A DNA stretch of 64,000 bases from an uncultured virus (IMG/VR IMGVR_UViG_3300029305_009146). Taxonomy: Duplodnaviria; Heunggongvirae; Uroviricota; Caudoviricetes. A program made the position numbers and the translations under genes. Under the pieces are notes generated by a model, which was not told the origin of the DNA, ran no database searches, and saw nothing but the letters and a program-made list of their open reading frames with translations. Positions 13,473 through 32,471 of this stretch are shown here, piece by piece (position 1 is the first letter of the stretch; the number at the start of each line of letters is the position of its first letter). The stretch is from the IMG/VR virus record IMGVR_UViG_3300029305_009146; one strand, given 5' to 3'.

Positions 13473-16106
13473 TTAATAAGCATAGGTTATTGTGAAGTTG
13501 CCACTGGTTTCAAACCATGTAATGCTGTCTTTCGCAACAAAACCGAAATTGAAAGCAGTTGTTCCTTCTGTCGTATTTGTTTTTATGTTCCTTAGCGCTG
13601 GCATGTTGTCGTTGACCTTCGTCCATGTAGTACCATTATCATAAGACAACCAACCATTTACTACGCCGTTCGTGCATGAACATTCCTTAAAACACAACGC
13701 ATTCGCGGAGTTTCCTGCTTCTACAATTCTAGTAGAGTTGCCCGCAAACAGAATATTCTGTGTTTCGTTCTTTCCTAAGAACCAGTATCCCTGGTCTTTT
13801 AAGCCTTCCGGGATGGTATAACTGCCATCAATGACAGACACAAACGTGTTTGCACTAAAGCCTCTGTAGGTTGCAGATACTGTGTATTTACCGACTGTTG
13901 TCAGGTCAATTCCGCTCTGATTTATAACGGCTTCATCGGACACATCTGCGGTGGAGCCGTCTGCATAAGTGGCAATAACTGTATATGCATCATTAGAATC
14001 AGACTCTCCTAACAGAATGTTTCCGTTTCTGCTGACAGTAATCTTTGTGACAGGGTTGAATACGTATTCACCAAGCTCTGCATATTGCGCACGGGTTACC
14101 ACTTCTATTTTTCCGGTATCCTCTAAATCCTTAAGGTAATCAAACAATTCTCTCCATTTTGCTATATCCGGCTCATCATTAAACGGCATATGCCAGTAAA
14201 TCTCTACAGACCGGCCCGGTTCAACCTGGTCTATCCAGCCCTGGATTTTGGAAAAGTTGCCGCCGTATCTAAGCAAGTCGTACTCCGAAGAAGCGGTAAT
14301 CGTACCGGTCACGCTCACGCCGACTCTTCCCCCGACTGCAGTATAGCCCATTCCTCTCCAGTCGTAATTATTTATATTACCTATCTGTCTTAAGTCAAAT
14401 TCAACGCCATCAACCGTCGCGGTAGGAGTGCCGCCCCAGTTTCCGACAGTTTTAATCGGGAATCCGTATGCCTCTTCCAATATCTCCCTTGAATCAGCTA
14501 TATAAGGAGCCCCCTGTGCAACGTCCGTGTCGGCAAGCTGTATCATAATTTCGTTACGCAGCTCCTCTTCTGTCCTGGTTCCACCCTGGTCTGTATAAGA
14601 AGTATGCAATTCTGTAAGAAAATCACCGGTAAGATAAGTACTATCCCAGATTTTCTTGCTTGAAGAACCATGCTGTGCTACTTCACCTAAGTCATTGTCG
14701 TAAAGATATTTACCTAATGTAACAACATCGACACCATCAGGGAATAATGCCGGAGCGTCGTCTTCCGTAAACATGGTATCGTCTACATCAGAACCTAATG
14801 CTTTTGCAATGTTTTCGGCCTCTACGTTCATGGTATACGGGAAGTCATAGGTCCTCAGCAATCTGAAAAACTTTGCATTTCCGACATTGTCGTCATCCGT
14901 ACCAAGAATCAAATATTTCTTATCAGTCGTGTTCTTTAGCTGCCACGTGCCTGTCGGCAGGATTTCTTCGTCCTCAGACGGGTCTGAAACGTCCGGCGTT
15001 ACCTGCGGAGTAACAGAAGGTGTCACCTCCGGCGTCACGCCCGGAGTTGTGTTCCCGGGAGCATTTCCTCCATCCGAGCAGAGTTCCGCGACAAAGAGCA
15101 CTTGAAGGGATAATTCCCTCTTTTCTTTAAAACTACGTCCGTAATGCGCTTCCAGTTCAAGAGGTGCAGTTACTTTTCCTGCAACAATTCCCAGCGGGGA
15201 AAGTTCAGACACATTGTCGGCATAGACATATTCGTTGGCAAGTCTTTCCTGCCAGCCGGTATCTGCAGCATTTATTCCAATAGAAAGATATTCTGCGCTC
15301 TGTTCTCCGTTTAAAGCATCCCATGAAAGCCCCGTTGCAGACTCTATCTCGTCGGGAGCCAGCAAGGTAAAGGCCCCATCCTTTTGAGCAAAGCCACCAA
15401 CGGATATTTTAACCGGTGCCAATGCATTGTTTTGTACAGAGATATCGCCGTAGGTAAAGCCGTCTTCTACATTCGGATTGATAGTACACGTTACGTTAAG
15501 CGGAACTGTTACGCTTATTTCGGTGGTATGCATAGTGACGTCGATTGTCATAGAATAATTCCCCTGTGCATTTCCCGGCGATGGAGTCCAACCCGTATAG
15601 GTATAAGAAAAATTGCTGTGAGGACAATCCTCTAATTCTGCTATTCCGTCACGGTAATCGAAATTACTGTGGGTAATGAGCTCGACGTTGTCAAACGGAG
15701 ATGAACTGTTAAGAGTGAAAGTGCCAGAGCCCTTAAACGGTTCAGCACTTTCAACGTATTCATAGATGCCATCCGTATTTGTGTCGGTAAAAACATACTG
15801 ATTAAAAGTTCCTTCTCTGTACAGATAGTATTTCTCGTCGGAGAGTCCTGCGGTCGGTTTTTCGTCATCTAAGATAAACGTAATCACCGGATTCCCCTGG
15901 TTATCAGTCGAAGAGTGAATAACAATATAATTGCATTCAGACACAGCCTGTAAAAAATCGACTTTTGTATTAAAGTCCTCAATTTCGGTCTCCAAATTTG
16001 GGAGGCCTTCGTTCATTTCTCCGGCCAGCGCTTCCACCGGGGTGCTCATAGCACAAAGACCAAGAACCATGCAAAGGCATAAAAATATGGATAATAACTT
16101 TTTCAT
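13473..16106 (-). CDS. Secreted protein: internal VPL...FVAEL domain, VTP linker, polysaccharide-deacetylase-like domain, Ig-like domain (paralog 3)
   Basis: LILGTDD, EVAQHG and IYWH resemble NodB/CE4 motifs; VIATYADGS...VGKYTVSATY is Ig-like. Confidence 0.75.
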   Translation of the reverse strand: MKKLLSIFLCLCMVLGLCAMSTPVEALAGEMNEGLPNLETEIEDFNTKVDFLQAVSECNYIVIHSSTDNQGNPVITFILDDEKPTAGLSDEKYYLYREGTFNQYVFTDTNTDGIYEYVESAEPFKGSGTFTLNSSSPFDNVELITHSNFDYRDGIAELEDCPHSNFSYTYTGWTPSPGNAQGNYSMTIDVTMHTTEISVTVPLNVTCTINPNVEDGFTYGDISVQNNALAPVKISVGGFAQKDGAFTLLAPDEIESATGLSWDALNGEQSAEYLSIGINAADTGWQERLANEYVYADNVSELSPLGIVAGKVTAPLELEAHYGRSFKEKRELSLQVLFVAELCSDGGNAPGNTTPGVTPEVTPSVTPQVTPDVSDPSEDEEILPTGTWQLKNTTDKKYLILGTDDDNVGNAKFFRLLRTYDFPYTMNVEAENIAKALGSDVDDTMFTEDDAPALFPDGVDVVTLGKYLYDNDLGEVAQHGSSSKKIWDSTYLTGDFLTELHTSYTDQGGTRTEEELRNEIMIQLADTDVAQGAPYIADSREILEEAYGFPIKTVGNWGGTPTATVDGVEFDLRQIGNINNYDWRGMGYTAVGGRVGVSVTGTITASSEYDLLRYGGNFSKIQGWIDQVEPGRSVEIYWHMPFNDEPDIAKWRELFDYLKDLEDTGKIEVVTRAQYAELGEYVFNPVTKITVSRNGNILLGESDSNDAYTVIATYADGSTADVSDEAVINQSGIDLTTVGKYTVSATYRGFSANTFVSVIDGSYTIPEGLKDQGYWFLGKNETQNILFAGNSTRIVEAGNSANALCFKECSCTNGVVNGWLSYDNGTTWTKVNDNMPALRNIKTNTTEGTTAFNFGFVAKDSITWFETSGNFTITYAY

Positions 16107-16118
16107 CTGACTCCTCCT

Positions 16119-17411
16119 TTACTCTAATTCAGCCACAAAGGTTACAGCAAAGCTAAACGAATTTCCCTCGGATTGTACGCGACCAAAACGCGCATCAAGC
16201 CCTAAGTTGGAGGAAGATTCTGCTTGTATAACACCAAGCTCCGTCTCGGTAAATCCCGGTACGGCCCACGCATAATCGCCGGCAATAGACTTCCACGGGT
16301 CGTTTTCTGCATCAATTGCTTTAACGCCAAGCGCGAAGTATTTCTGAGAATCCTCTGCACCAAGAGTTTCCCATTCAAGACTATCCGGCAATTCATCCGG
16401 TGCAATCAAGTCAGTGAACGGCAAATCGTTAGAGGTAAAGTTTGCGATACTCAGCTTCACCGGAGCCTTGGTTTCGTTTTCGACTACAATGTCGGCGTAA
16501 ACAAGCGCGTCATCCACGTTTACGTTGATAGATACGGCTACGTTTAACGGAACACGAACACAGACAACGGTTGGCTCTACATCGATATCTACTTGCGTCA
16601 TACCGGCGAATACATCAAAGGCAGCGGTACGCACATCCCCATGAACAGACGGAACGGTATACGGGGTGCTGTTTTCGGTGCCGGAAACATCGTTGCTACT
16701 AAAAATAACAGTTTCCCGAGCTCCGATTTCTTTTGTGGTAACAACGGTCCAAGCTTGTTCGCAAACAGCAATAGCTCCGGAATCTTCCACAAGTCCGTCC
16801 TCGATATCATACCATTGTACGCTTGTATCATTAAGCTCTACTCTGACAAAGCAATAACCTTCGCATGATATTGTGTAATATGCATTTCCCTGCGTTTCAA
16901 AATCCACATCATCTAAAACGGACTTTGTAAATTCGCCTATTTCTTTTTTTGTGTAAAAAGTCGTGATGGACGGATAATCGTTCTCTACCGGGTCACCGGA
17001 GCCTGGAGTATAGATATAGTGATAAGAGTCATAAGCTGAGATTACAGCATATTTCTGGTCAATAAGCTCCCCAGGCAAGTTTTCGCCTGCGGCATATTCA
17101 ACCGGAACGTAATCAGCATCCGGGGCATAAACTTTCGCATTGCCGGTTGCAGTAAAAATAGTTCCCGATGAAGAGACAGATAACGTCAAGTCTCCGTTAT
17201 AGAAAATAACACCGGTGTCCTTAGTGTTACCGACAAGCCAGAATTTTTCATAATCCGGTTCGTTAATGGTTCTCTCACCGTACCTGGTATCAACGGTTAC
17301 AGTTGCGGCCTCTGCTCTTTCGGGGGCAAATATAAGTCCTGCAATTAAAGCAAATGCGGCAAAAGCAAATCCTTTTGCAAATTTTGTTTTCATGGAATTT
17401 TCTCCTTTCAA
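16119..17411 (-). CDS. Secreted protein, VPL...FVAEL family paralog 2
   Basis: Signal peptide; shared C-terminal domain ending TFVAELE. Confidence 0.85.
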   Translation of the reverse strand: MKGENSMKTKFAKGFAFAAFALIAGLIFAPERAEAATVTVDTRYGERTINEPDYEKFWLVGNTKDTGVIFYNGDLTLSVSSSGTIFTATGNAKVYAPDADYVPVEYAAGENLPGELIDQKYAVISAYDSYHYIYTPGSGDPVENDYPSITTFYTKKEIGEFTKSVLDDVDFETQGNAYYTISCEGYCFVRVELNDTSVQWYDIEDGLVEDSGAIAVCEQAWTVVTTKEIGARETVIFSSNDVSGTENSTPYTVPSVHGDVRTAAFDVFAGMTQVDIDVEPTVVCVRVPLNVAVSINVNVDDALVYADIVVENETKAPVKLSIANFTSNDLPFTDLIAPDELPDSLEWETLGAEDSQKYFALGVKAIDAENDPWKSIAGDYAWAVPGFTETELGVIQAESSSNLGLDARFGRVQSEGNSFSFAVTFVAELE

Positions 17412-17465
17412 TTTCTTGTTGCTATAGAATTACAGTATGGAATGCCGTAAAACAGCCTCCATACT

Positions 17466-17472
17466 GTTAAGG
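17466..17472 (-). promoter_or_regulatory. Element motif core (TTTC)CCTTAAC
   Basis: Intergenic. Confidence 0.6.
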
Positions 17473-17490
17473 GAAATATTTTTTAAGAAA

Positions 17491-18366
17491 CTACTCCAGA
17501 AGCTCAACCACGAAGGTTGCGGCAAAAGAGAAGTTTTGTTCTGTGGCAAAGGCCTTGCCATAATATACCTGTAAGCCCAAGTAAGCAGTGCTTTGTCCGT
17601 CAATCACGCCCAGTTCTGTCTTCTTGAATGTCGGCGAGGTATAAACATATCCTTTTGAACGGTCTTCCCTCCAAAAAACGTTCTTGTACTCAATCGGACG
17701 GATACCGATAGCTACGTAACGTAATGTTTCGCTTACACTTAAATTGTCCCAATAGAGCCCGTCCGGGAGTTCTTCGGGGCGAATGCAGTTCTGGAACGGG
17801 ATACCGGTAGTATTAAAGTCCTTGATGCTTACCACAACCGGAGCTTTGGTATGGTTCTGGACTTCGATTGCACCGAAAACAAATCCGTTTTCTGCGTTTG
17901 GGTCAATATATACGTCTACGGTCAACGGGATGGTAACACAAACCACAGTAGCTTCTACAGAAGCAACGAATTCGGTACTGGTCGTGGTAGATGGCATCTC
18001 TGTAACAACAACCTCCGGAACATCTGTGGGAACGGGCAGACCTTCGGTCGGTTCTACTGCGTCACCGGTATCATCCGGAATGAGAGTTTCTTCCGAAGGT
18101 TCAACAGTTTCGAGGTTTTCTTCTGCGGGAGCGTCTTCAGCAGGAAGTGTAATTTCGGGCTCTGTCTGTACAAGAGACCCTTCCACGACCGACTCCGTCA
18201 AACCCTCAGAAACTTCATCTCCCACGCTTGCAGATTCTTCTGTTGTAAGAATACTTTCTTCTGTTGTAAGAATACTTTCTTCTGTTGCGTATGCCGGGAA
18301 CACGTTGGTTCCGGCAATACTAAGAGTTAAAATACAAAAACACAACACACCGCTTAGCTTTCTCAT
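17491..18366 (-). CDS. Secreted protein, VPL...FVAEL family paralog 1 (acidic low-complexity N-terminus)
   Basis: Signal peptide, TEESILT 21-bp tandem repeat, shared domain ending TFVVELLE. Confidence 0.85.
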   Translation of the reverse strand: MRKLSGVLCFCILTLSIAGTNVFPAYATEESILTTEESILTTEESASVGDEVSEGLTESVVEGSLVQTEPEITLPAEDAPAEENLETVEPSEETLIPDDTGDAVEPTEGLPVPTDVPEVVVTEMPSTTTSTEFVASVEATVVCVTIPLTVDVYIDPNAENGFVFGAIEVQNHTKAPVVVSIKDFNTTGIPFQNCIRPEELPDGLYWDNLSVSETLRYVAIGIRPIEYKNVFWREDRSKGYVYTSPTFKKTELGVIDGQSTAYLGLQVYYGKAFATEQNFSFAATFVVELLE

Positions 18367-20289: not shown

Positions 20290-20480
20290 CTCTGAAAAAC
20301 GAAGCCTGTTTGACACTCCCCATATCTAAAGAAAAGGGATTCTTGCTACCCGTTGGATATTTTCCAACTGATTAGTCCATTTCTGGTAAATCGCAGTGCA
20401 AGGCATGGGTATGTCATTACCCATCCTAAAGCAGTACCATTAGTACTTTAGGCAGATAGTCTGTTACCAACTATCTCAGT
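20290..20480 (-). ncRNA. Predicted TnpB omega/reRNA including ~20-nt guide (5' boundary approximate)
   Basis: Lies between the tnpB 3' end and the right-end TCAA, as established for TnpB systems. Confidence 0.6.
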
Positions 20481-21667
20481 TGAAGCACAGATATTTCTTG
20501 CCCCAACGATATCCCGGTGTGTATGGTATCCACAAGAACATCCATACCATCTATCCTTTGCGTGGTTCAATGAGCCACACTTTGGACATTTTTGGCTGGT
20601 ATACGAGGGATTTACATACGCCACCTGAATACCTGCCAATCGGGCTTTGTATTCGATATACATAGCGAGCCGGTAGAAGCTCCACGTATGCAGGCTTGGA
20701 TTGTTTTTACGACTTTGTCTTGTCGCTGTTCTTATGTTTGCAAGCTGTTCCAGTTTGATAGTTGAAACACCTTGTTTTATCGCTTCATTTACAACGGAAC
20801 GACTTATCTTATGGTCAATATCTTTCATGATGCGCTGTTCTTTGTTGTTGATACGTTTCACTGCAGCCATCTTTTTCTTTTGCTGTAGCTTTTTGCGGAG
20901 ATACTTATAATGGCGTCTCATATATTTGTTGTGACGGCCATTCCCATAGAATTTTACTTTACCGTCAGAAGTGAAACTAACGGCGGGGCATTTAATTCCT
21001 AAATCAATGCCCATGACTTTGTTGTCAGGCAAAAGTTCCGGCGCTGCTTCTTCAATACTTACCTGTGCTATCAATTTGCTGTTTTTAGATACAATACGAA
21101 GCGTGCCAAGTTTATGGCTTTTGATGGTATCGTATTGCTCTTCCGTACAGAAGGTTTTGATGCGGATGCGTTCTGATTTGCCGTTAATTAAAACCGGAAC
21201 AGAAAGATATATCGTATCCTCTGTAGAGAACGTATCTTTACTAATTACAAAGTTTTGGTTGTTCCAGTAACAGCACGGTTTCTTTAACACAGGAAGATGT
21301 GGTGCTGTTACTCTTACGGGAGAACCTTTGGCAATCAGTCTTTTGTTTTGCAGCACAGCTTTGTGACATTCTTTTCTATGTTTTTTTATGATGGAGCGTG
21401 CGTCTTGCGCTATCTGCGCTCTTACTGCAGAAGGTAAATTTGCACGGATATCTTTACTGCTAAATTTACGAATGTCAATGCCACGAATCGCAAGTGATAC
21501 TGTTTCGTTTACTGCGCGGATGTATTCGTCCATAGCAGAATGGATTATCTTTTCCTGCTCTCTTGTGAAGGAAAGTTTTATTGTTTCTGTCAGTTTCGTT
21601 TGTATCACCTTCCTTTCTTGTGCTTATATCCCCCATAGTTAAAAACAGGGGTTTTACGCGCATGAGA
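20310..21667 (-). mobile_element. Non-autonomous IS200/IS605 (IS1341-like) element, tnpB only
   Basis: Left-end hairpin CCCCTGTT-TTT-AACTATGGGGG following TTAT; right-end hairpin ending GGGGAGTGTCAA; no tnpA. Confidence 0.8.
20448..21608 (-). CDS. tnpB: TnpB RNA-guided endonuclease
   Basis: RuvC motifs GIDLG, IKLEQL and RDIVGARNI; zinc finger TSQKCPKCG...CSCG. Confidence 0.95.
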   Translation of the reverse strand: MIQTKLTETIKLSFTREQEKIIHSAMDEYIRAVNETVSLAIRGIDIRKFSSKDIRANLPSAVRAQIAQDARSIIKKHRKECHKAVLQNKRLIAKGSPVRVTAPHLPVLKKPCCYWNNQNFVISKDTFSTEDTIYLSVPVLINGKSERIRIKTFCTEEQYDTIKSHKLGTLRIVSKNSKLIAQVSIEEAAPELLPDNKVMGIDLGIKCPAVSFTSDGKVKFYGNGRHNKYMRRHYKYLRKKLQQKKKMAAVKRINNKEQRIMKDIDHKISRSVVNEAIKQGVSTIKLEQLANIRTATRQSRKNNPSLHTWSFYRLAMYIEYKARLAGIQVAYVNPSYTSQKCPKCGSLNHAKDRWYGCSCGYHTHRDIVGARNICASTEIVGNRLSA

Positions 21668-21766: not shown

Positions 21767-23614
21767 TCAATATTCAATCTTTGAAAGAATATTTTCCAGC
21801 TTCTTTACGCTCTCGGTAGTATCATTAGTCAGCTCGTGATTGTTGTCAGTAACCGAAGCAACGTTTGCGGTTTTTTCCGCGATATCCGCAACACCCATAA
21901 CATTTTCGTCAATAATGATGTTGATTTCGTTTACTGCACCGGAAACTTCATCAATTACAGTATTCATCTCTGAGACTTCCTTGTGAATCACTTCCATGCC
22001 GGACATGAACGTGTCTGCATCTGACATATACTGTTCGCTCAAGTTACGAAAGTTATCGTAATCGCTTAAAACAGAAGCACCTAAAAATTCTGTTGTCCCG
22101 GTCATGCACTTTGTGATATCCGAAACTGCAGCATCGGTAGCCTTAATAATTTCATTAATGCTCTTTACAGTATCCAGAGAACGAGCCGCCAGATTCCTGA
22201 TTTCTCCGGCAACGACGGCAAAGCCCTTACCGGCCTCTCCTGCTCTTGCGGCTTCGATGGAAGCGTTAAGGGAAAGGAGGTTGGTCTGGTCAGAAATCTC
22301 GATAATAGCCGCAGTCAATTCATTAATCTTCTTTACTGCTTTTAACTTTTCAAGAGATGTAGATGTATCTTCCTTGATTTGTTCGTACATTTTCTGCGTC
22401 TGAGTGATTGCATTAACGGTTACATTCTGAAGCTCCGTGGTTCTCTTTGCAATCTCCTTGGAAACCTCATTATTTTTTTCTACCGCACTTTCAATGCTCT
22501 CTGACTTTTCCTTCATCTGTGCAATACGCTCAGTCATTGCATTTGTTGTTTCTGCAACCTTGCCGGAGTTATGAGAAAGCGCCTCGGTTGTTTTGGAGTT
22601 ATTTTGGCACAGCATACGCACTTCTTCACTGGAATCTTCCAACGCTTGCATATTCTCTCTTATCTGTCCGTTTGCATTTTCTATCCGGGAAATCATCTCC
22701 CCAAGACTGGCAGTCATCTTCTGGACCGACCGACTCATGGTTCCGGTCTCGTCTTTTTTGTCACAGAGACGTTCCAAGTCGTCGGAAGCCTTTAACTTTA
22801 AATCGGCAATATCGTCAATGATTTTACCAACCTTTTGGATTGGTTTTGTGATACGGTTTGAAATATACTGACTCAGAAAGATTGACGCAGCCATCAGGCA
22901 TGCAACCGTAACACAAGAAATTAACACAAGTCTGCGAATAGGACTCATAAGTTCACTTCCGCTGGCACAAACCACCACGACAGACTTGATTCCTGTTACG
23001 TAATAGCTTGCATAATAGGTCTCACCGTCTTCTTCGAACTCCATGCAGAGATTATCTGGGACAACGCCTCTTGCGAGCTTTCCCAAAAGGTCAGAAAGTA
23101 CGCTGTTTCTCACCGGTTTTTTGATTTTTGATGCGTCGGTATGGTATTCAATAATACCACTACCGTTGGTTACGTAGTAATAATACGAATTAACTCCCTC
23201 CAGAGAAAAATCCTTCAAAATCTCTCCGTATTCTTCGGCGGAGAGCTGTATCGGTTTTGAGTTGATTTTGTTCTGTGGTTGCGCAGCCTGCTCTTTTACA
23301 TCCACCAGCTTACCGTAAGATGTAACAGTATTAAGCATCTTTCCGTAGGCGGAATCAATTACAAGGTCTTTCATACTGTTCATCAGCACAAGAAGAATTA
23401 CTGTAGCAGCAAGAACAATCCCCGAGACGGATGTCATGATAATCTTGGCTTTGATGGATTTAAGCTCGATTTTCGACAAAGGCTTTGTAACCTTCTTTAA
23501 TGCCGGCAGAATCTTTTTCCCGGCTTTAGATGAGACTTTTTTAGTTTTTCCTATAACCTTTTTAAGCGCAGAACCGGATTTCTTCGGACCTGCGTTTTTC
23601 TTTTCCTTTTTCAT
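21767..23614 (-). CDS. Methyl-accepting chemotaxis protein
   Basis: Two TM helices, Cache-like sensor, [31 protein letters not shown] signalling hairpin. Confidence 0.95.
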
Positions 23615-23655: not shown

Positions 23656-23726
23656 AGCTGGTAGAGGGAATTGAACCCCCGTAGGCAGATTACAAATCTG
23701 CTGCCAAGCCACTTGGCGATACCAGC
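23656..23726 (-). tRNA. tRNA-Thr(TGT)
   Basis: Cloverleaf; anticodon arm GCAGA-TTTGTAA-TCTGC; no encoded CCA. Confidence 0.85.
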
Positions 23727-23852
23727 AGTCCGGAGCACGCTCCGGTGTTCGGAGTCATTGCTCCAATTTTGAGGTCTAAGCCCCAGATAAAAAACCGATA
23801 ATGACTATGTCAAAATCGGGGGCTGTATCCAAACATGTTGGTACAGTCACAA

Positions 23853-23939
23853 CGCCTGGAGAGGGATTCGAACCCCCGTGCCATTTAAGGCTGTACGGTT
23901 TTCAAGACCGCCCCGTTACGACCACTTCGGTATCCAAGC
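23853..23939 (-). tRNA. tRNA-Ser(TGA)
   Basis: GCGGT-CTTGAAA-ACCGT, long variable arm, G discriminator. Confidence 0.9.
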
Positions 23940-23965
23940 AATAAAATATTGTTGTTTGTTTTTAG

Positions 23966-24103
23966 CGGCACAGGTAGGGCCCTGCTCTCCAGTGGAGAGC
24001 GTCTAGGGCGGACCGAGTCGGGAGACGAGACTTCGAACCCACGGTCCCTTTCGGAATCACTGGTTTTCAAGACCAGCCCCTTAAGCCTCTCGGGCACTGT
24101 GCC
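23966..24103 (-). tRNA. tRNA-Ser(TGA) with 52-nt insertion in the T-loop
   Basis: Acceptor GGCACAG/CTGTGCC, T-stem GTGGG/CCTAC, loop TTCGAA[23980-24031]C. Confidence 0.8.
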
Positions 24104-24118
24104 AAAATTAAACGAAAG

Positions 24119-24358
24119 CTATTTTTCATTTTCCTTCTCTTTCTTTGTCCACTCAATCAACCCATGAATGTTCATAAGTGAATAAACAGCATACATTACC
24201 ACATTTGCCAAATTAAACGTTGTAAGAAAATTGACAAGAATCCACGTAAGGTTGCTGGCTATCCATACAGGAAAAGCAGCTTTCTTCTTTTTATTAATCA
24301 AAACCTGTCCACCCAAACTCAAAACCGTTGCCAACCACGACAAAATAATACCTAGCAT
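24119..24358 (-). CDS. Short PnuC-like membrane protein
   Basis: Three hydrophobic segments, FPVWIASN and NIHGLIEW resemble a PnuC half; embedded in the tRNA array. Confidence 0.6.
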   Translation of the reverse strand: MLGIILSWLATVLSLGGQVLINKKKKAAFPVWIASNLTWILVNFLTTFNLANVVMYAVYSLMNIHGLIEWTKKEKENEK

Positions 24359-24580
24359 TGTACTTTCTCCTTGTTTGTTATTCTCTTTAATCACGAAAAA
24401 AAATCCCTCTTATAAAACCAACTGCCATTTAGGCCCGCTCTTATCTCGTCAGATAGGCGCAACTTCCAAGGGATTCGAAACCAAGAGAAGTGGAATGTGG
24501 TGTCCCCTCTGCGTTTGGTATCGAAGTTTTTTCAGAATTTGTAAGCCACACATCTTACAACTCCTTATAGATGGAAAAAA

Positions 24581-24651
24581 TGGACCGTGTAGGGTTCGAA
24601 CCTACGCACCGGTTATGACCCGACCACTCTAACCAACTGAGCTAACGGTCC
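24581..24651 (-). tRNA. tRNA(CAT), Ile2/Met type, slightly degenerate
   Basis: GTCGG-GTCATAA-CCGGT; very short variable region. Confidence 0.75.
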
Positions 24652-24723
24652 ACAGACTGCTATACAGCAGCTATATAGCAGTCATGACACATATTTGGTT
24701 TTTGCCGTCCACGACAACGGCAA

Positions 24724-24795
24724 CTGGGCTGGCAGGATTCGAACCTGCGAATGCAGGGGCCAAGACCCTGTGCCTTACCTCTTGGCGACAGCCCA
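24724..24795 (-). tRNA. tRNA-Gln(TTG) with C at position 33
   Basis: Gln-type body TGGGCTG...CAGCCCA-G; loop TC-TTG-GC. Confidence 0.8.
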
Positions 24796-24802
24796 ATGTT
24801 AA

Positions 24803-24934
24803 ATACTTACGGTGTGCGGCCGGAATGGCTTCCAGCTCCGGAGCAAGGCTATCCTCGTGTGTTGTTTGATATACGTCTATATCTCATCCACACGGTTCCT
24901 ACACGTCCTACGGACTACCGTACACCGTAAATAC
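24803..24934 (-). ncRNA. Candidate structured ncRNA (~132 nt)
   Basis: 16 of 17 pairs in the closing helix, which encloses three hairpins. Confidence 0.55.
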
Positions 24935-25120
24935 TTAAAAATATATACATGCAATGCTCTTTTTCGCCCGGTGAAACCACCGATTTGCAGATTTAATGTT
25001 ACTCCTTCAGGAAGGCTACCATGGATTATTTCCTATAAGGGTGCAGGCATCACATAGAAACTTTTACATATGGCCTTATGCAAAGATGTTCCCCTAGCCT
25101 GCTTAAACTAATTTCCCTAG

Positions 25121-25193
25121 TCGAGGTAGCCGGACTCGAACCGACGACGTCGTGAACCCAAATCACGCGCCCTACCATCTGGGCCATACCTCG
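25121..25193 (-). tRNA. tRNA-Pro(TGG)
   Basis: CGTGA-TTTGGGT-TCACG, canonical cloverleaf. Confidence 0.9.
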
Positions 25194-25204
25194 AAAAGCT
25201 ATTT

Positions 25205-25519
25205 GCCGTCACACAGGTTGCAACCCTAGACTGCTTTCCCTCTGGGAAGGTCTTTCGTTCAATAAGCTATCCGTTCAAAGCGGATGTCTCTGCTTATCAC
25301 GCAGTCCAAACCTTTGAGAGTGTATCTCCTCTATTGTTTTAAATGGTTTTTCGACCCCTGTACACGAATGCACGAACGAGCGAAGGTTACGCCTTTTCCC
25401 GTCAGGGCCATGTCCAAAACTCTCCTACGCAGTCACTATCGCTCTTTAACCTCGGCCTTGCTTCTCAAGACTAATATCCTCTGTCTTGACACCCCATCGG
25501 AAAGGGTTCGCCTTACGGC
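25205..25519 (-). ncRNA. Candidate large structured ncRNA (~315 nt)
   Basis: End-to-end pairing GCCGT/ACGGC and AACCCT/AGGGTT, many internal stems, no credible ORF. Confidence 0.6.
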
Positions 25520-25522
25520 TAG

Positions 25523-25679
25523 TAGCCTCTGCCGGACTCGAACCGGCGTAGCCTTTGTCTTTTTCCCGGGTTATTACACAAAAGCTGTTGCGTATTCCTG
25601 ACAAATTATTCCGCAACCATCCCTATTCTTACTGGTTTGTAAAAACTAGGAGTGCTTGTACCAACTAAGCTAAGAGGCT
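25523..25679 (-). ncRNA. tRNA-like RNA with three hairpins (~105 nt) replacing the anticodon and variable arms
   Basis: Perfect acceptor AGCCTCT/AGAGGCT, D arm GCTT/AAGC, T arm GCCGG-TTCGAGT-CCGGC. Confidence 0.75.
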
Positions 25680-25685
25680 ATATAA

Positions 25686-25758
25686 TCGAAGCGACCGGAT
25701 TTGAACCGACGACCTCTGCACCCCCAGTGCAGCGCTCCACCAACTGAGCCACGCTTCG
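25686..25758 (-). tRNA. tRNA-Pro(GGG)
   Basis: CTGCA-CTGGGGG-TGCAG, canonical cloverleaf. Confidence 0.9.
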
Positions 25759-25855
25759 ATGTTCCCAGAGAACAAAGAAGCTCTCCGGGAGTAACAAAAT
25801 ATTTTAGGAGGTATCCCATGCTCTGAGATACTGTGGGGGCACAACTCCCCACGAA

Positions 25856-25948
25856 TACGACAAGCGGGATTCGAACCCGCCATACAACCGGTTGCTCATG
25901 CCGCACAGAATGTCTAGTCCTGTCCATTACCACACCTGGAATTGTCGT
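25856..25948 (-). tRNA. Atypical class II tRNA, anticodon AGA (Ser-like)
   Basis: Acceptor ACGACAA/TTGTCGT, CAGGA-CTAGACA-TTCTG, long variable arm, perfect T arm. Confidence 0.6.
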
Positions 25949-25994
25949 ACCAGTTTTTTGAGCCGATGTAATTGAGCGTGCTTATCTAGCACAG

Positions 25995-26071
25995 TCCCCT
26001 ATACAGGATTTGAACCTGTGACCTCTCGGCTTTTGCAGACCAAGCGCTCTTCCTGGCTGAGCTAATGAGGG
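25995..26071 (-). tRNA. Atypical tRNA with enlarged anticodon arm (loop CTGCAAAA)
   Basis: Normal D and T arms; CTTGGT/GCCGAG stem with 8-nt loop; one acceptor mismatch. Confidence 0.6.
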
Positions 26072-26152
26072 ATGAACGCTCCCGTCACACCCGGGCGGGG
26101 GCGTTATGTTGGTAAGTAGTTTACAAGGAGGACTTCTGGCAAAGAAGCCCAG

Positions 26153-26211
26153 TGAGGTACTCGGGAATTGAACCCGGGTGTTTTTGCTTCCCTTTTTGAA
26201 GCATATACCCC
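26153..26211 (-). ncRNA. 59-nt tRNA-like RNA lacking the anticodon arm
   Basis: Acceptor GGGGTAT/GTACCTC, GCTTC/GAAGC arm, 8-nt linker, CGGG-TTCAATT-CCCG. Confidence 0.65.
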
Positions 26212-26240
26212 AGAAAGGAACCAACGCAACCATCTTTCAC

Positions 26241-27796
26241 CGAAACCTATGCTACGGAAGCCCCTCGCTTTAGCCATGGGGAGGAAGTAGCACAAGCCCT
26301 TTCTGTATAATATTTATATCCATCTGATTTCTGCACAAGAGTAATATACTTATGGTTTATGCCCTGTACACGCTCTTTGCCTGTCTTAACATCGAAAGAG
26401 CCGCTCTTTCTGCATGCAACGGTCCCGTAGTATACACCTACCTTCTTTCCGGACGTGACGACGGCTTTTACCATATCTCCCGTCTGAAACCCGAAGAACT
26501 GCTTCTGTCTCGCGAAATAGCCTCTCGGAAATCCTGATGCATTTACGTTGGTTCTCTGATGGATTCCCCTGCCGACAGCCTTGATAAACTGGACGGTATC
26601 CGTTTTGAAAACCAAGATGTCCGGAGTGGAGGCTCCAACGCAAACCGCATCGTAGTAGTGTTCTTTCGGCAAGCCCAACCGGATGCGATTAAGTTTTGTT
26701 CTGCCGCCAGTCCCGCATTCTATCGGAATACCAAAGGATTTCAATATCTGCAATACAGCCCACCGGGTTGCGGTTACCATTGCAGCATCTTTCAGTGGTT
26801 TCCTTGTGAGTGCCTGTACCTGTGGGTGCCCAAATTCTTCGGCTGTCATGTTGTCTTTCTTCTGATTGCAGTCATGGCAGGCTATTGCGAGATTACTGAT
26901 TCGGTTAGAACCTCCCCGGGACTTCGGAATGATGTGCTCGATTTCAAGCTTTGCATTCTCCGTTCCGCAATACGCACACTTCCGATTAAACTTCTCAAGA
27001 AGGTACTCTCTTACCTCGTATCCCGCTAACTCTCCCTGCTGATATTCAATCCCGCAGATATCCGGATTTTGAAGTAATTGGGTATCAAACTTAACGTTCT
27101 CGTAGGATATATATCCGAGTGGAACAATCTTTGACAACCTCCTTACAAAGGCGTGGATGTTATTTATCCGGCTCATCAAAGATGGAGGCAACCAGCCCTC
27201 TGGTCTCCTCCGGTTTAGAAACCGGGGTTTACGGTAACGCAGATTTGAGGAACGTCTGCGCCGGCGGTATCCCCTTCTGGCATCAAGATTACTCTTGATG
27301 TCAGTTCTGTGCTCCATCTGACCAAGCCAGCACATCTCATTACCCTTCAGAATAGCAAGACCAGTGTGCCTGCTGCCGTAGTCAATCTTTATGCGGTAAG
27401 ACTTTTCCGGAGACTGTTCCGCTCCCTTCTTTAAGATGATGGTGAACGGAGCTTTCCGGAAGATTGCCGCCTTACCATCTTTTAAAAGCCTTCTTGCTTT
27501 TGCCGGATGACACATGTCCAACGGCTGTTTATTTGCATCCAGTACAAATACCATGGAATCTTATTCCTTTCTCGCCTTACGGCGGTAAATATCCTCTCGC
27601 CAATGTTAATTAAGCTTTTCATGCTATACACACTACCCATTACCCCATGACGGATTGTTTAATGTATAACGACAGAGCGACGGACTGAGGAGGCATCCGA
27701 AGGTGTCATGACTTAATTAACGTAGCACATCATGTGCTTAAGCTGGTCAATATGAGGCTTTTACAAGCCCCTACCTTTAGGTATGGGGTTATTGAC
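26241..27796 (-). mobile_element. IscB-type IS200/IS605 element (non-autonomous)
   Basis: Begins GTCAATAACCCCATACCTAAAGGTAGGGGCTT; ends with the related hairpin CCCCATGGCTAAAGCGAGGGGCTT; 3' boundary uncertain by a few nt. Confidence 0.8.
26247..27554 (-). CDS. iscB: IscB RNA-guided endonuclease (RuvC + HNH)
   Basis: VFVLD..KQPLDMCHPAKAR N-terminus, IDYGS RuvC-I, Arg-rich bridge helix, CAYC...EHIIPKSRGGSN HNH, HYYDA RuvC-III. Confidence 0.95.
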   Translation of the reverse strand: MVFVLDANKQPLDMCHPAKARRLLKDGKAAIFRKAPFTIILKKGAEQSPEKSYRIKIDYGSRHTGLAILKGNEMCWLGQMEHRTDIKSNLDARRGYRRRRRSSNLRYRKPRFLNRRRPEGWLPPSLMSRINNIHAFVRRLSKIVPLGYISYENVKFDTQLLQNPDICGIEYQQGELAGYEVREYLLEKFNRKCAYCGTENAKLEIEHIIPKSRGGSNRISNLAIACHDCNQKKDNMTAEEFGHPQVQALTRKPLKDAAMVTATRWAVLQILKSFGIPIECGTGGRTKLNRIRLGLPKEHYYDAVCVGASTPDILVFKTDTVQFIKAVGRGIHQRTNVNASGFPRGYFARQKQFFGFQTGDMVKAVVTSGKKVGVYYGTVACRKSGSFDVKTGKERVQGINHKYITLVQKSDGYKYYTERACATSSPWLKRGASVA

Positions 27797-27812
27797 TTCT
27801 ACGCCGGGATTT
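27560..27812 (-). ncRNA. IscB omegaRNA (HEARO-like) including 5' guide
   Basis: GTCAA...TTGACCAGCTTAAG...CTACGTT...ACATTGGCGAGAGG scaffold upstream of iscB. Confidence 0.8.
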
Positions 27813-27913
27813 GCCGAAAGTCGGCAACGTTGTGCGTCTAAACAGAAGATGTGGTTTTTACCAACGTACAACGCCATGCTTAAGCTTACTTTTGCATCTT
27901 TGTCGGATGCGAA

Positions 27914-27981
27914 TACTCCACAGCGGAATCGAACCGCCATCTTCCCGTTAAACGAGTGCTCTGCCATTGAGCTAATGGAAT
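27914..27981 (-). tRNA. tRNA-like gene with shortened anticodon arm (3-nt loop TTA)
   Basis: Normal acceptor, D and T arms; CTCGT-TTA-ACGGG is 13 nt instead of 17. Confidence 0.65.
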
Positions 27982-28040
27982 ACTTAATCACACAGAAAGG
28001 AGGCGAAACTAAGAAATTGCCGGGTAATCACTCCGGCGAG

Positions 28041-28114
28041 TGTGCCATATAGGACTTGAACCTATGACCAACCGGTTATGAGCCGGCCGCTCTCACCAAC
28101 TGAGCTAAAGGCAC
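28041..28114 (-). tRNA. tRNA(CAT), Ile2/Met type
   Basis: GCCGG-CTCATAA-CCGGT cloverleaf. Confidence 0.88.
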
Positions 28115-28206
28115 AAAGTTTATCCTTTCTTAGAGGAGTTTCCCCGGCCCGCTGTAATCTCGGCGGGCCAAGGAGTGGAGGTATAACAATGAAAAGAAAA
28201 GCTGCG

Positions 28207-28279
28207 TGGGCCACGCGGGAATCGAACCCGCGACACCCGGATTAAAAGTCCGGTGCTCTGCCGCCTGAGCTAGTGGTCC
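28207..28279 (-). tRNA. tRNA-Lys(TTT)
   Basis: CCGGA-CTTTTAA-TCCGG cloverleaf. Confidence 0.92.
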
Positions 28280-28368
28280 TTGTACGCGTCGCCATCGGCT
28301 CATCCTTGTCCGGCTCGGCAGCGGCGCGCGTGCTCGAAATAATTTGCTCTGTAATTTCTTACGTTATT

Positions 28369-28397
28369 GTTAAGGGAAAAAATTTGCAGAAAATAAA
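28369..28397 (-). promoter_or_regulatory. Element promoter-like motif TTTATT-N16-CCTTAAC
   Basis: Exact match heading the tRNA array. Confidence 0.75.
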
Positions 28398-28415
28398 AGT
28401 TTTTGATGTTTTTTT

Positions 28416-28940
28416 CTACAGCTTAAAGAAAAGGTTGCAGAGCTCCTGCATAAACTCGTCTCCTACCGGGGACCTGTGTTCAGCATTCGGAGCATTCACT
28501 TCTCTCGGCATATAGTCAAAAATTGTTGCCGAAACTGCTCCCGGACGCTTACCGGATGTATACTGGAGCGGCGTTGTCTTGGCGTGTTCGCTACCATATA
28601 TTTTCTTAGCAAGGCTGATTAATTCCTCTTCCGGCTTATCAATCGTGCGTACGCCATAACGCTTAAACGCCTTCTTACTATCCAGATGATATCTTGGTCC
28701 AAATGTCTTTTCTACCACTCCCATAGCGTAATCGTACTTCATATCTTCCGGGGCAAAACAAAGCACAAGATGCTCTGTATGCGTTGCCGCTTCTTCTACA
28801 GAAACCACTACCAGGTTCTTCTTCACAATCTCGTTGAGCTTCTGTTCCTTCTCGGAAAGAACCGCCTTCATTTTCTCTTCTTCGATAAAGCGGATTGCCT
28901 CATCGTAATCTAACTCTCTTCCGTTTACATTAATCTTCAT
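28416..28940 (-). CDS. Hypothetical protein
   Basis: 174-aa ORF with RBS. Confidence 0.7.
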   Translation of the reverse strand: MKINVNGRELDYDEAIRFIEEEKMKAVLSEKEQKLNEIVKKNLVVVSVEEAATHTEHLVLCFAPEDMKYDYAMGVVEKTFGPRYHLDSKKAFKRYGVRTIDKPEEELISLAKKIYGSEHAKTTPLQYTSGKRPGAVSATIFDYMPREVNAPNAEHRSPVGDEFMQELCNLFFKL

Positions 28941-30056: not shown

Positions 30057-30599
30057 TCACTCCGTTTTCTGCAAATACTTCGCTGGTACTTCATTTGTGA
30101 GCCAAACACCGTTTGCAGAGAGGTAGAACTTATATCCATCCTTTGCCATCTGACCGGTATTTACCCGATAGAGTACTAACTTGCCATGCCTCTCCCCTAC
30201 CATAACGGCCGTTTCTAAATCCTTGCTCAGATGAACATGAAGTCTGCTCTTTGGGATAAGACCGTTCTTTTCAATGGAAGCGACATATTTCTCTGCAGTT
30301 CCATGCCAGAGATAATCCGGCGGAGTTGCTTCCGGAAACTCCAAGTCTACCGGAATGGAATGTCCCTGATTCGCCCGGATGCAGGTCATGTCTTCATTGA
30401 ATGCATAGCGCTGCTTCTCATCCGTAGCGACAATCTCCTTTAATAAATCCATATCAAAGGATTCAAACTCCGGATTCTTTTTAATTCCGGCAATCAATTC
30501 CTTTGTATTTGCCCAGCCATGCCTATCTAAGGCAATGCCGATAACCTCCGGCTTATGGCGCAAAATAAGGGCAATGAATTTACTTACATGGGTTTTCAT
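30057..30599 (-). CDS. kptA: RNA 2'-phosphotransferase (Tpt1/KptA)
   Basis: ILRH, LDRHGW, KQRY, IRANQGHS, LWHGT and HVHLS motifs. Confidence 0.95.
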   Translation of the reverse strand: MKTHVSKFIALILRHKPEVIGIALDRHGWANTKELIAGIKKNPEFESFDMDLLKEIVATDEKQRYAFNEDMTCIRANQGHSIPVDLEFPEATPPDYLWHGTAEKYVASIEKNGLIPKSRLHVHLSKDLETAVMVGERHGKLVLYRVNTGQMAKDGYKFYLSANGVWLTNEVPAKYLQKTE

Positions 30600-31239
30600 A
30601 AAAAGATTTCTCCTCTCTTTCTTCCTGTAGACGCTCTTGATACATCTCATACAGCGTCGGAGAAGTTTGTTTTAATAGCTCTTCCAGCTTTTCAAAATCA
30701 TCACACCATTCGCAGACATTAAACGGAGCCTGATGTCCGTCGTCATAATCAGCGAAAAATCTTGCTGCTGGAGAGTGAGGACATCCTCCGGTGTAGTTAA
30801 AATTAATTCCATCCCAATCATCCCATGCTATATCAAAACATGCTGCTCCATAACCACTTTTTCTGATTGTTTTTTCGAAGTCATGGATTTTACCGCAAAC
30901 ATCACTGAAAGTGTCTTCTCTAAATCCACGATAAGACTGTTCGGCAAGCAACAAGACTAATACTTTAAACCGCTCTTGTTCATCTTCAGATACAGGTCTC
31001 TTCTTGATAAGCTCTTGCATTTTTTTCTGCACAACCTGAGCATGTTCTGCACGATATTCGTCAATTGTTTTCTCTGGCTTTAAGACAGTCATAGTGTCGT
31101 GGGTAGTATCGAGAAACTTAACATTCCACATGCCAAGCCTGTTAACAAGAGCTCTTGCTGTGAATTTTAACTTATCCTCAGCAACAAAATCAAGTTCTTT
31201 TTCCAGTACCGATAAAAATACTTCTTCAGCAGTTTTCAT
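30580..31239 (-). CDS. Hypothetical protein, paralog of 31265..31966 (C-terminal domain)
   Basis: ADYDD...VCEW...PTLYEMYQERL. Confidence 0.7.
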   Translation of the reverse strand: MKTAEEVFLSVLEKELDFVAEDKLKFTARALVNRLGMWNVKFLDTTHDTMTVLKPEKTIDEYRAEHAQVVQKKMQELIKKRPVSEDEQERFKVLVLLLAEQSYRGFREDTFSDVCGKIHDFEKTIRKSGYGAACFDIAWDDWDGINFNYTGGCPHSPAARFFADYDDGHQAPFNVCEWCDDFEKLEELLKQTSPTLYEMYQERLQEEREEKSFYENPCK

Positions 31240-31264: not shown

Positions 31265-31966
31265 TTAACGGTCAAGCGCCATGGAAGATTCCGGGAATCT
31301 CTCAGATAATCTTGTCTGGTACATTTCGTAAACCGTTGGAGCCGTTTCCCGAAAAAGCTTTTCAAACTCTTCATAAGAACCTTCCCACTCACATACAGTT
31401 CGGTCGTCATAATCAGCAGTGAAAATTATGGAGCCACGAGGAGTCTGATAACCGGTTCGGATTTCATTCCATTTGGATTTTGCTTCTCCAAAAAACGCAT
31501 GATTGTATCCACGCGCCTCGATTGCGTATTCGAAGTCGCTAATTTCGTCATCGATAGAATCTTCCTCATTTTTGTGATATGTCTCTGCAAGAAAAACGAC
31601 TATTTTCTCGAACTTTTCCTTATCGGCACGAATTTTTTGCTCTTTCTGCTCGCGAGGGCCTGCTTCTAAAAACCAAAGAGCGTTATTCGAAGCAACATAT
31701 AAAGCCTTGAGTTCCTCGTGTCGGGCTCTTACTTTTTCTGCAAGAAGACTCTTTGCGAGCTCATCATTTTCTTCTGAAAGTAAAACATGAAATTCGTTGT
31801 CATTATCTGAGTAGACTTTTTCGAGCATCTTTTGCATATAGATACAAGCAGTTTGGAAACGTTCCGAATCATTCAGAACGGCCACTTTTTTGTACTGAAA
31901 ATTTCCCTCTCCGTCTGTATTAAAATCTACAGAATAGCGCCATAGGGTTGTTTCATTTTTACTCAT
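31265..31966 (-). CDS. Hypothetical protein, paralog of 30580..31239
   Basis: ADYDD..VCEW...PTVYEMYQTRL. Confidence 0.7.
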   Translation of the reverse strand: MSKNETTLWRYSVDFNTDGEGNFQYKKVAVLNDSERFQTACIYMQKMLEKVYSDNDNEFHVLLSEENDELAKSLLAEKVRARHEELKALYVASNNALWFLEAGPREQKEQKIRADKEKFEKIVVFLAETYHKNEEDSIDDEISDFEYAIEARGYNHAFFGEAKSKWNEIRTGYQTPRGSIIFTADYDDRTVCEWEGSYEEFEKLFRETAPTVYEMYQTRLSERFPESSMALDR

Positions 31967-31979
31967 AAATCATTCCTCC

Positions 31980-32471
31980 TTATCTGTTCAAAATCTCTAT
32001 TGCCCTATCCTTAAGTTCCTCTGTGAGACCGTGCTTATATGTAGTATGGATGAAGAGGTCTGTGTCGGTATACTCCCGCATATCCGAATCGTCGTCAAGG
32101 ATGATGAAGTTATCGACCGGATTCTTTGAGAGCCATTCTCTGATTTCATCACCACGTTGGATGTCTCCACTCAATGACGGCGTGATGTCATAAATCTCCA
32201 AACCATAGTCACGGAGTCTCTTTTCAAGTCTTTTGTATAACTTATCACCAAAAATACTTTCCCGACCGCTTCTCTCACAGCCGATACGCCAAGAAGACGA
32301 TACTACAATCTTTGCGCCGGTCCTATCGATAATCTCTTTGAGTAACTTCAAAGGACGGTCTTCCACCTCTGCATACATAATACATCCGGTGATTCCATTT
32401 TTCTCACGAAACACCATTAAATCGTCTTCAGAATTCAAAACTCCATCAACGTCTAAGAAAACAACTTTCAT
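31980..32471 (-). CDS. HAD phosphatase, Swiss Army Knife RNA-repair-like (HAD_SAK_2)
   Basis: FLDVDGVLN, IVVSSSWR, RGDEIREWL, IILDDD. Confidence 0.85.
   Translation of the reverse strand: MKVVFLDVDGVLNSEDDLMVFREKNGITGCIMYAEVEDRPLKLLKEIIDRTGAKIVVSSSWRIGCERSGRESIFGDKLYKRLEKRLRDYGLEIYDITPSLSGDIQRGDEIREWLSKNPVDNFIILDDDSDMREYTDTDLFIHTTYKHGLTEELKDRAIEILNR

Follow-up and report, generated by a model that had tools for sequence, protein, structure and literature searches.

Canonical and arm-altered tRNA-like units in one array of a phage-like element: a possible counter-defence tRNA operon

We have analysed a stretch of DNA of 64,000 nucleotides (hereafter the window) from an uncultured virus, IMG/VR record IMGVR_UViG_3300029305_009146, which carries an array of 14 tRNA-shaped units on its minus strand between positions 28279 and 23656. 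The units were numbered U1 to U14 along the direction of transcription (Table 1). Eight are canonical tRNAs according to both ARAGORN and Rfam, while the other six (U3, U4, U5, U6, U8 and U12) are aberrant, and none of the 14 encodes its own CCA end. An initial annotation, made from the sequence alone, had listed all 14 units and had noted the missing CCA, and both statements hold. Absent from that annotation were an IscB/omega-RNA insertion and a 79-aa open reading frame (ORF) within the array, as well as RNA-repair genes nearby.

Table 1. Features of the array and its surroundings, in window coordinates and in the order of transcription.
Feature	Coordinates	Strand	Evidence or remark
HAD phosphatase, 'Swiss Army Knife' RNA-repair type (HAD_SAK_2)	31980..32471	-	PF18143 E 2e-27
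RNA 2'-phosphotransferase Tpt1/KptA, 1.8 kb upstream of the array	30057..30650	-	PF01885 E 4e-45
Terminator-like hairpin closing the upstream gene, ahead of the promoter-like motif	28436..28450	-	consensus scan
Element-specific promoter-like motif, T-rich tract then CCTTAAC	28369..28400	-	about 90 nt upstream of U1
U1, tRNA-Lys(UUU), canonical	28207..28279	-	ARAGORN; Rfam 64.8 bits; acceptor 6/7, T stem 5/5
U2, tRNA with CAU anticodon (Met or Ile2 type), canonical	28041..28114	-	ARAGORN; Rfam 69.6 bits
U3, tRNA-like, 68 nt, anticodon arm of 13 nt (needs 17)	27914..27981	-	Rfam 43.0 bits
IS200/605-type insertion, 1.56 kb	26237..27796	-	HEARO, IscB ORF and conserved right end
HEARO/omega RNA, RF02033	27796-27585	-	160.5 bits against a cut-off of 83
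IscB ORF, 435 aa	27554-26247	-	RRXRR (PF14239 E 9e-66) and HNH domains
U4, three-way junction, 59 nt: 7-bp acceptor, 6-bp hairpin with 7-nt loop, T arm	26153..26211	-	fold
U5, tRNA with 8-nt anticodon loop	25995..26071	-	ARAGORN 'tRNA-??? (gcaa)'; Rfam 44.8 bits
U6, class-II (long variable arm) tRNA-like, A34 and C37	25856..25949	-	ARAGORN Ser(aga); acceptor 7/7, T 5/5
U7, tRNA-Pro(GGG), canonical	25686..25758	-	ARAGORN; Rfam 61.0 bits
U8, tRNA body with three hairpins (96 nt) replacing the anticodon arm	25523..25679	-	Rfam local 36.2 bits, full model
U9, tRNA-Pro(UGG), canonical	25121..25193	-	ARAGORN; Rfam 60.6 bits
U10, tRNA-Gln(UUG), loop with C33, G37, C38	24724..24795	-	ARAGORN; Rfam 58.0 bits
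U11, second CAU tRNA, canonical	24581..24651	-	ARAGORN; Rfam 51.5 bits
79-aa ORF, like the C-terminal part of PnuC	24119..24358	-	PF04973 E 1e-8; TIGR01528 31.9 bits, below cut-off
U12, tRNA-Ser(UGA)-like, 52-nt insert in the T loop	23966..24103	-	Rfam 22.6 bits, model positions 6-65 only
U13, tRNA-Ser(UGA), canonical	23853..23939	-	ARAGORN; Rfam 52.6 bits
U14, tRNA-Thr(UGU), canonical	23656..23726	-	ARAGORN; Rfam 60.3 bits
615-aa protein with MCP signalling domain	21767..23614	-	PF00015 E 1.4e-27; unusual cargo

ARAGORN at its default settings called ten of the 14 units and passed over the remaining four. Rfam at the gathering score (29 bits for the tRNA family RF00005) likewise returned ten tRNAs, in a set slightly unlike that of ARAGORN which includes U3 and U5 and excludes U6. 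All eight canonical units pass the RF00005 cut-off over the whole model with 51.5 to 69.6 bits, and among the aberrant units it is passed by U3, U5 and, with its insert, U8, whereas U12 gave a partial match and U4 and U6 gave no tRNA match. In a T-arm scan, a 5-bp stem around a T-loop-like heptamer was sought on both strands of the window. The scan returned 13 GC-rich T arms in the array and none of such quality elsewhere in the 64 kb, the other matches (36 on the minus and 39 on the plus strand) being mostly 4-of-5, AT-rich chance matches. A tRNA body, in which an acceptor stem of 7 bp stacks on a T stem of 5 bp and the T loop is canonical, is present in 13 of the 14 units; U12 has both stems and an interrupted loop. 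The 8/4 or 9/3 division of acceptor and T stem seen in allo-tRNAs does not occur, all units being 7/5 (U6 at most 8/5). No tmRNA was called by ARAGORN, and Rfam gave only 15-nt T-loop fragments. The Y RNA-like family YrlA reached 19.5 bits against a cut-off of 69, and the TROVE domain was absent among the 57 window proteins scanned. At 24469-24482 on the minus strand, in the spacer between U11 and the 79-aa ORF, is a stretch that resembles a T loop but has no proper stem; it may be what is left of a fifteenth unit.

The canonical units contain two CAU tRNAs, U2 and U11, which share 83% identity over 48 nt. The C33 that had been read in the anticodon loop of the Gln unit, U10, is present. The six aberrant units retain the tRNA body and are unable to decode in the normal way, and none of U3, U4, U5, U6 and U8 combines the features of a decoder (a 5-bp anticodon stem, a 7-nt loop, U33 and a purine at position 37). 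The initial annotation had described an anticodon arm 4 nt short in U3, enlarged in U5, replaced by three hairpins in U8 and carrying A34 in U6, together with an interrupted T loop in U12, and our analysis reproduced each of these alterations. In U3 the remainder of the fold is regular (acceptor 7/7, D stem 4 bp, T stem 5/5) and the shortened arm can pair either over 5 bp, closing a 3-nt loop, or over 3 bp, closing a 7-nt loop. U5 has 9 nt where the Rfam model has 6. U6 combines its A34 with C37 and was not reported as a tRNA by Rfam, its best match being tRNA-Sec (RF01852) at 28.4 bits against a cut-off of 47; an identity as tRNA-Sec was rejected on this score and on its anticodon position, which reads AGA and not UCA.

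U4 was undetected by any tRNA tool, Rfam included, and folds into its three-way junction with an ensemble frequency of 0.66 and a z of -3.07, none of 200 shuffles folding equally well; its T stem has four of five pairs and its T loop is canonical. One internal arm is lacking in U4, as had been claimed, but the claim that this is the anticodon arm does not follow, since the remaining hairpin has the dimensions of an anticodon arm and no U33; decoding is impossible whichever arm was lost. We rejected the possibility that U4 belongs to the neighbouring insertion sequence (IS), as none of the 14 IscB homologues compared has U4 downstream of it. U4 lies 25 nt beyond the right end of the IS. A local search of U8 with the Rfam tRNA model showed 96 nt where the model has 13 anticodon-arm positions, and the whole unit folds with a z of -3.84, again with none of 200 shuffles as good. 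A blastn search of U8 against a phage collection of 50,697 records gave no match. U12 (z -2.75) has a normal anticodon arm, and its insert is enclosed by a perfect acceptor of 7 bp and a T stem of 5 bp. The first 78 nt of U12 match phage tRNA-Ser genes in the same collection, while the remainder has no match. By eye, the start of the U12 insert bears a slight likeness to the 3' end of a second tRNA-Ser, which may suggest a recombination scar. The U8 and U12 inserts were also considered as repeats or mini-IS copies and rejected as such, there being no such repeat within the window. Rfam searches up to an E of 10 found no group I intron or other intron family in the array inserts.

Some of these units might still be unusual decoders, with U5 a frameshift-type or otherwise altered tRNA, U6 and U10 nuclease-resistant tRNAs and U3 a short-stem tRNA. 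U5, U3 and U10 do pass the Rfam tRNA cut-off, and nuclease-escaping phage tRNAs with loop changes or shorter stems have been published (PMC10264068, PMC12445682; here and below, statements from the papers cited refer to the parts of them that were accessible). We nevertheless regard this explanation as distinctly unlikely. U4, U8 and U12 are unable to present an anticodon in the normal frame, U6 falls below both the tRNA and the tRNA-Sec cut-offs, and the window gives no sign of recoding. U3, read through the anticodon of its 7-nt-loop form, would pair with TAA, which is the stop of 50 of the 74 ORFs counted, and suppression would be harmful; a role as stop-codon suppressor was rejected for this reason.

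Counting acceptor and T-stem pairs with G-U allowed, 70 of 72 are formed in the aberrant units and 94 of 96 in the canonical ones. Because these stems are so well paired in both classes, the lesions are single, gross and local, and the aberrant units show no sign of general decay. The earlier statement that the arms are well paired throughout requires some correction, in that three acceptors have one mismatch (two of them in canonical units) and one T stem has four of its five pairs. The gross lesion lies in the anticodon arm in five of the six aberrant units and in the T loop in one. With lesions taken as proportional to length this clustering has a binomial P of 0.003, and the value becomes 0.05-0.11 when only lesions that leave a recognisable unit are counted. 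The clustering in the anticodon arm is suggestive, not compelling.

The same lesion pattern has to be set against a neutral origin, in which an ordinary phage tRNA cluster had six units recently disabled by indels at hot-spot loops and these units have no role. This is a real possibility and a close rival of the counter-defence reading given below, if slightly less likely. One gross lesion per aberrant unit is what recent damage would leave, the clustering is modest once adjusted for ascertainment, and tRNA pseudogenes are known in phage clusters from the accessible literature. The region is moreover in flux, with its IscB insertion, its small ORF, inserts of 96 and 52 nt, spacers of about 325 nt and the T-loop remnant between U11 and the 79-aa ORF. 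Six units in 14 is, however, a high share for wreckage in an element whose ORFs look intact, and the aberrant stems are paired as they are in working tRNAs. That weak remnant is the only half-decayed unit in the array, and there are no orphan T arms. U8 remains strongly structured with an insert that is neither a repeat nor a recognisable mobile element. Should the units be wrecks, the locus would still show fast array turnover and the settling of IscB in such arrays.

Two RNA-repair genes, encoding Tpt1 and a HAD phosphatase, lie 2-4 kb upstream of the array. The assignment of Tpt1 is supported by an NCBIfam equivalog score of 242.5 bits against a cut-off of 239. These genes raise the further possibility that the U8 and U12 inserts are intron-like, being removed from the transcript and the halves sealed with a 2'-phosphate that Tpt1 would then take off. 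Tpt1 performs exactly this last step and stands close by together with a repair-type phosphatase, and the inserts do break otherwise perfect tRNA bodies. We consider splicing of this kind very unlikely all the same. Pfam searches (E up to 1), PHROGs, NCBIfam and a scan for Walker A, KxDG and 2H motifs recognised no splicing endonuclease, RNA ligase or kinase among the neighbours, no Rfam intron family matched, and U8 without its insert would lack a proper anticodon stem. The repair of nuclease-cut tRNAs explains Tpt1 equally well. Between the two repair genes lie paralogous proteins of 219 aa (30580-31239, minus strand) and 233 aa (31265-31966, minus strand) with a shared C-terminal motif. They gave no family, Atlas or motif match and may be candidates for the missing parts of a repair module. 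PADLOC, run on 54 proteins, returned nothing beyond the expected TnpB/Cas12f and HNH similarities.

The initial annotation had placed a single element motif ahead of the array, and this arrangement is borne out. The window has 22 copies of the motif CCTTAAC on its minus strand against one on its plus strand, and almost every copy follows a T-rich tract and precedes an ORF. The plus-strand copy (4533) precedes the single plus-strand gene, and the minus-strand sites include 63449, 59188, 55083, 39500, 30007, 29281, 28375, 20228, 19120, 8427 and 7523. The copy at 28375 stands before U1, the array itself contains no copy, and the T-rich tract is next seen with the copy at 20228. The 615-aa MCP-domain gene starts 41 nt past U14 with no promoter-like motif between them. 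This layout suggests that the array, the 615-aa gene and a TnpB gene beyond it are transcribed as a single unit, and the element-wide use of the motif suggests an element-specific sigma factor or RNA polymerase. Sigma-70-type sites were not enriched in the region by consensus scan, and terminator-like sites there were no more numerous than in shuffles. Outside the window the motif gave single chance matches only, at 38 loci in IMG/VR and at no fewer than 120 loci in the 18 of 64 parts of the GTDB genomes that were scanned.

Taken together, these observations lead us to a tentative reading of the array as a counter-defence tRNA operon, in which RNase P and RNase Z would release the six aberrant tRNA bodies as mimics that do not decode; this reading may be correct, although it falls short of probable. 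The promoter-like motif would drive a polycistronic transcript comprising the 14 units, the IscB element, the PnuC-like ORF and the following gene. Judged by what these enzymes require, RNase P and RNase Z would cut out all of the units and the CCA-adding enzyme would tail them, a prediction made because the units have a 7-bp acceptor stacked on a T arm and no encoded CCA. The eight decoders would then provide a supply of replacement tRNAs during infection, alongside the Tpt1 and HAD repair genes upstream. The six remaining bodies would offer an acceptor, T-arm and elbow surface to tRNA-binding defence nucleases or toxins while lacking a normal anticodon stem-loop that could be cleaved or decoded, which would put them, like the decoders, in an arms race at the anticodon arm. 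As a by-product, the aberrant units would mark cleavage points in the transcript, and punctuation by RNase P and RNase Z is probably a property of the units. A more specific version holds that the excised and CCA-tailed mimics are non-cleavable competitors that soak up nucleases or toxins reading the acceptor, T arm and elbow. We think this version rather unlikely; its targets could be, for example, enzymes of the OLD, Cas12a3 or tRNA-nucleotidyltransferase-toxin kinds.

The counter-defence reading draws on the intact stems, the strong folds of U4, U8 and U12 and the share of six aberrant units among 14 in an otherwise intact element. The composition of the array (Lys-UUU, Thr-UGU and others) and its Tpt1/HAD context would also fit a counter-defence cluster. 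Lys-UUU is a reported target of PARIS and of a bacterial Schlafen, and Thr-UGU of P2-OLD (PMC12445682, PMC13056530). The resistance of a phage tRNA-Thr to P2-OLD is due in part to its shorter anticodon stem (PMC12445682), and changes in the anticodon loop let phage tRNAs escape nucleases (PMC10264068). Cas12a3 binds the acceptor stem, the T arm and the CCA tail, and cuts even when the tRNA loops are removed (PMC12851939). RNA-repair genes beside tRNAs have been described in jumbo phages (PMC7824862), and in irregular tRNA polycistrons some members are charged and yet unused in translation (Mukai et al. 2017, PMC5389517).

Several points weigh against the counter-defence reading. The folds of U5 and U6 do not surpass those of shuffled sequences (z -0.58 and -0.78). 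Insertions and site-specific recombination favour the anticodon loop and the T loop, and a mutational bias could therefore give the same lesion pattern. Punctuation alone leaves the altered arms unexplained, because a normal tRNA punctuates equally well. About 1.3 kb of other spacer in the array region has no assigned feature, which indicates that junk is seemingly tolerated there. A homologous array was not found in the collections searched (IMG/VR, JGI metagenomes, part of GTDB and phage records), and a literature search, which left subscription journals mostly outside, found no decoy tRNA of this kind in print. The initial annotation had proposed that shape is selected over decoding in these units. 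The intact tRNA bodies, the loss of decoding and the clustered lesions agree with that proposal, but a mutational bias could yield the same pattern, and selection on the aberrant units is unproven since no homologous array turned up for a covariation test.

Relatives of the array were sought through its proteins as well as its DNA. The 174-aa protein, the 615-aa protein and Tpt1 had no relatives in IMG/VR, nor had the 615-aa protein in the JGI metagenomes. The family of a 102-aa neighbour was present at 32 IMG/VR loci, four of which hold a few ordinary tRNAs and none an array. A tblastn comparison of 74 window proteins with all collected loci revealed no common gene order. The exact 24-mer from U3 gave no match, a T-loop/anticodon motif returned 118 loci that are mostly ordinary tRNA-Asn or tRNA-Lys, and a blastn search of the array DNA against the 50,697 phage records matched generic tRNA parts only. 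A whole-record tRNA search of five large contigs among the 102-aa-family loci found odd units only in G001, an unrelated 150-kb IMG/VR provirus. There, two tRNA-like units with 6-nt anticodon loops stand among normal tRNAs (region L048, G001:C1:20000-38000, at about 4541-4608 and 9786-9856); G001 has no DNA similarity to the window and no gene order in common with it. The same G001 region contains a 600-aa ORF (16099-17901, minus strand) that weakly resembles PF05183, the RNA-dependent RNA polymerase family of eukaryote type (E 8e-11). Four IMG/VR contigs (L055, L076, L119 and L153) have a conserved 'minihelix' near base 3000 of each (1212 in L055), consisting of an acceptor-like stem of 7-8 bp, a 12-nt linker and a perfect T arm without D or anticodon arm. 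The minihelix represents a further type of reduced tRNA-like element in phages.

Parts of the array have counterparts in known systems. In tRNA punctuation, as in mitochondria and in bacterial tRNA-mRNA co-transcripts, RNase P and RNase Z cut free the flanking RNAs, and the array units likewise flank the IscB/omega-RNA module, the small ORF and the downstream gene. The tRNA region of phage T4 yields the stable RNAs species 1 and 2 (rnaC and rnaD), which are co-transcribed and processed with the tRNAs and have tRNA-like ends; they have no sequence relation to the array units and are not tRNA bodies with a single altered arm. Phage counter-defence tRNA clusters (directed against PrrC, PARIS, retron Eco7, P2-OLD and Schlafen) share with the array, in the accessible accounts, the Lys-UUU and Thr-UGU isoacceptors, an altered anticodon loop (C33), one shortened arm and RNA-repair genes nearby. 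The resistant phage tRNAs described in those accounts are decoders with point changes, whereas here four units are without a usable anticodon arm. The irregular polycistrons and allo-tRNAs of PMC5389517 are similar in that tRNA-like genes stand in a row and have non-canonical arms, with an extra loop in some. Mobile elements or toxin-antitoxin genes are associated with them, and their sources include phages and rumen Clostridia. They differ in that allo-tRNAs are 8/4 or 9/3 and the polycistrons come from acidobacterial soil transcripts, while the array units are 7/5, and the accessible part of that paper makes no mention of arm-missing or T-loop-split units. The tRNA-Other of Bacillus cereus, described in the same source, is likewise tRNA-like, aminoacylated and apparently non-decoding, but it is a single chromosomal gene with a complete cloverleaf and a sequence unrelated to the array. 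Our literature search, within its stated coverage, found no phage tRNA operon with anticodon-arm-less or T-loop-split units. With irregular tRNA polycistrons already described, the apparently new feature is the occurrence of arm-less and T-loop-split units in a phage tRNA operon.

tRNAs have recently become a main battleground in the conflict of phages with bacterial immunity, in which phages are known to respond with replacement tRNAs that carry point changes and with RNA-repair enzymes. If the aberrant units are made and selected, tRNA-shaped RNA decoys would constitute a third phage answer beside these two. The locus would then also provide minimal tRNA bodies of natural origin, one of 59 nt that lacks an arm and one whose T loop tolerates 52 extra nt, with which the needs of RNase P, RNase Z, the CCA-adding enzyme and tRNA-directed nucleases could be tested.

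The largest interruption of the array is the IscB-omega RNA (HEARO) element, which resembles other members of the IS200/605 superfamily in its full HEARO, its RRXRR and HNH ORF and its sharp conserved ends. IscB homologues were found at 15 IMG/VR loci with proteins 61-68% identical (one partial), and a HEARO lies upstream in all 15. In flank alignments of these loci the left end of the IS falls exactly at the start of the HEARO and the conserved right end at about 26237. These ends indicate that the IS inserted into a former 142-nt spacer between U3 and U4, where it is a passenger and does not belong to the tRNA-like system. Among the 15 other loci a single one has tRNA genes beside IscB, namely a second IscB/HEARO element (L003, 34-554) that stands 87 nt downstream of three tRNA genes (Glu, Ala and Thr). 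In the IscB group including the window, two of 16 loci are thus directly after tRNA genes. The initial annotation had also spoken of unassigned structured RNAs between the units. The largest of them is indeed structured but is the HEARO, and of the two spacers of about 325 nt (z -0.91 and -2.47; no RNA family match) only one is borderline structured.

The 79-aa ORF ends 15 nt before U12 and encodes a protein of three helices that resembles the final third of PnuC, the nicotinamide riboside transporter. Only two relatives of about 70% identity, both on short contigs, were present among 5.8 billion proteins, and searches of 401 genomes from one Clostridia family, three further metagenome-assembled genomes and the JGI metagenomes did not recover the ORF. 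Tpt1 consumes NAD, and a link to the PnuC-like ORF is conceivable.

In its gene content the 64-kb window resembles a section of a large phage-like mobile element, and the element comes from the animal gut. Nearly all of its long ORFs are on the minus strand, and coding density is high. Matches to Pfam and PHROG families include an integrase, YopX, dUTPase, RecJ-like and RuvB-like proteins and a Mob_Pre relaxase, and no capsid or tail genes were recognised among the proteins scanned (57 against Pfam and 47 against PHROGs). Two window proteins are on record on four contigs, the longest of 154,507 bases. Six animal faecal metagenome runs (21 listed) contained between a third and two thirds of the sampled array words, and no RNA run with the array was among the 21. 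The window comes from a metagenome-type contig, and the odd units might on that account be products of assembly or sequencing. We judge such an artefact extremely unlikely, given that contigs of four faecal runs showed 0 differences to the window in all 32 listed pieces (eight per run), including pieces across U3, U4, U5, U8 and the U12 insert. These contigs are of low depth with no single piece covering the whole stretch, one of the four runs is possibly the source sample, and the four studies possibly belong to one campaign. The agreement of the four runs together with the high coding density argues against a decaying or misassembled element. Besides the MCP-domain protein, the element has other cargo that is unusual for a phage-like element, including a 2617-aa BspA/DUF285 leucine-rich-repeat protein (45413-53266, minus strand) and a PilZ-domain protein (8474-9118, minus strand). 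A TnpB/Cas12f-like ORF (20448-21608, minus strand), with OrfB_IS605 and TNB domains and a PADLOC Cas12f match of 2e-46, lies downstream of the array in the same putative transcription unit, and the element thus carries both IscB and TnpB guide-RNA nucleases.

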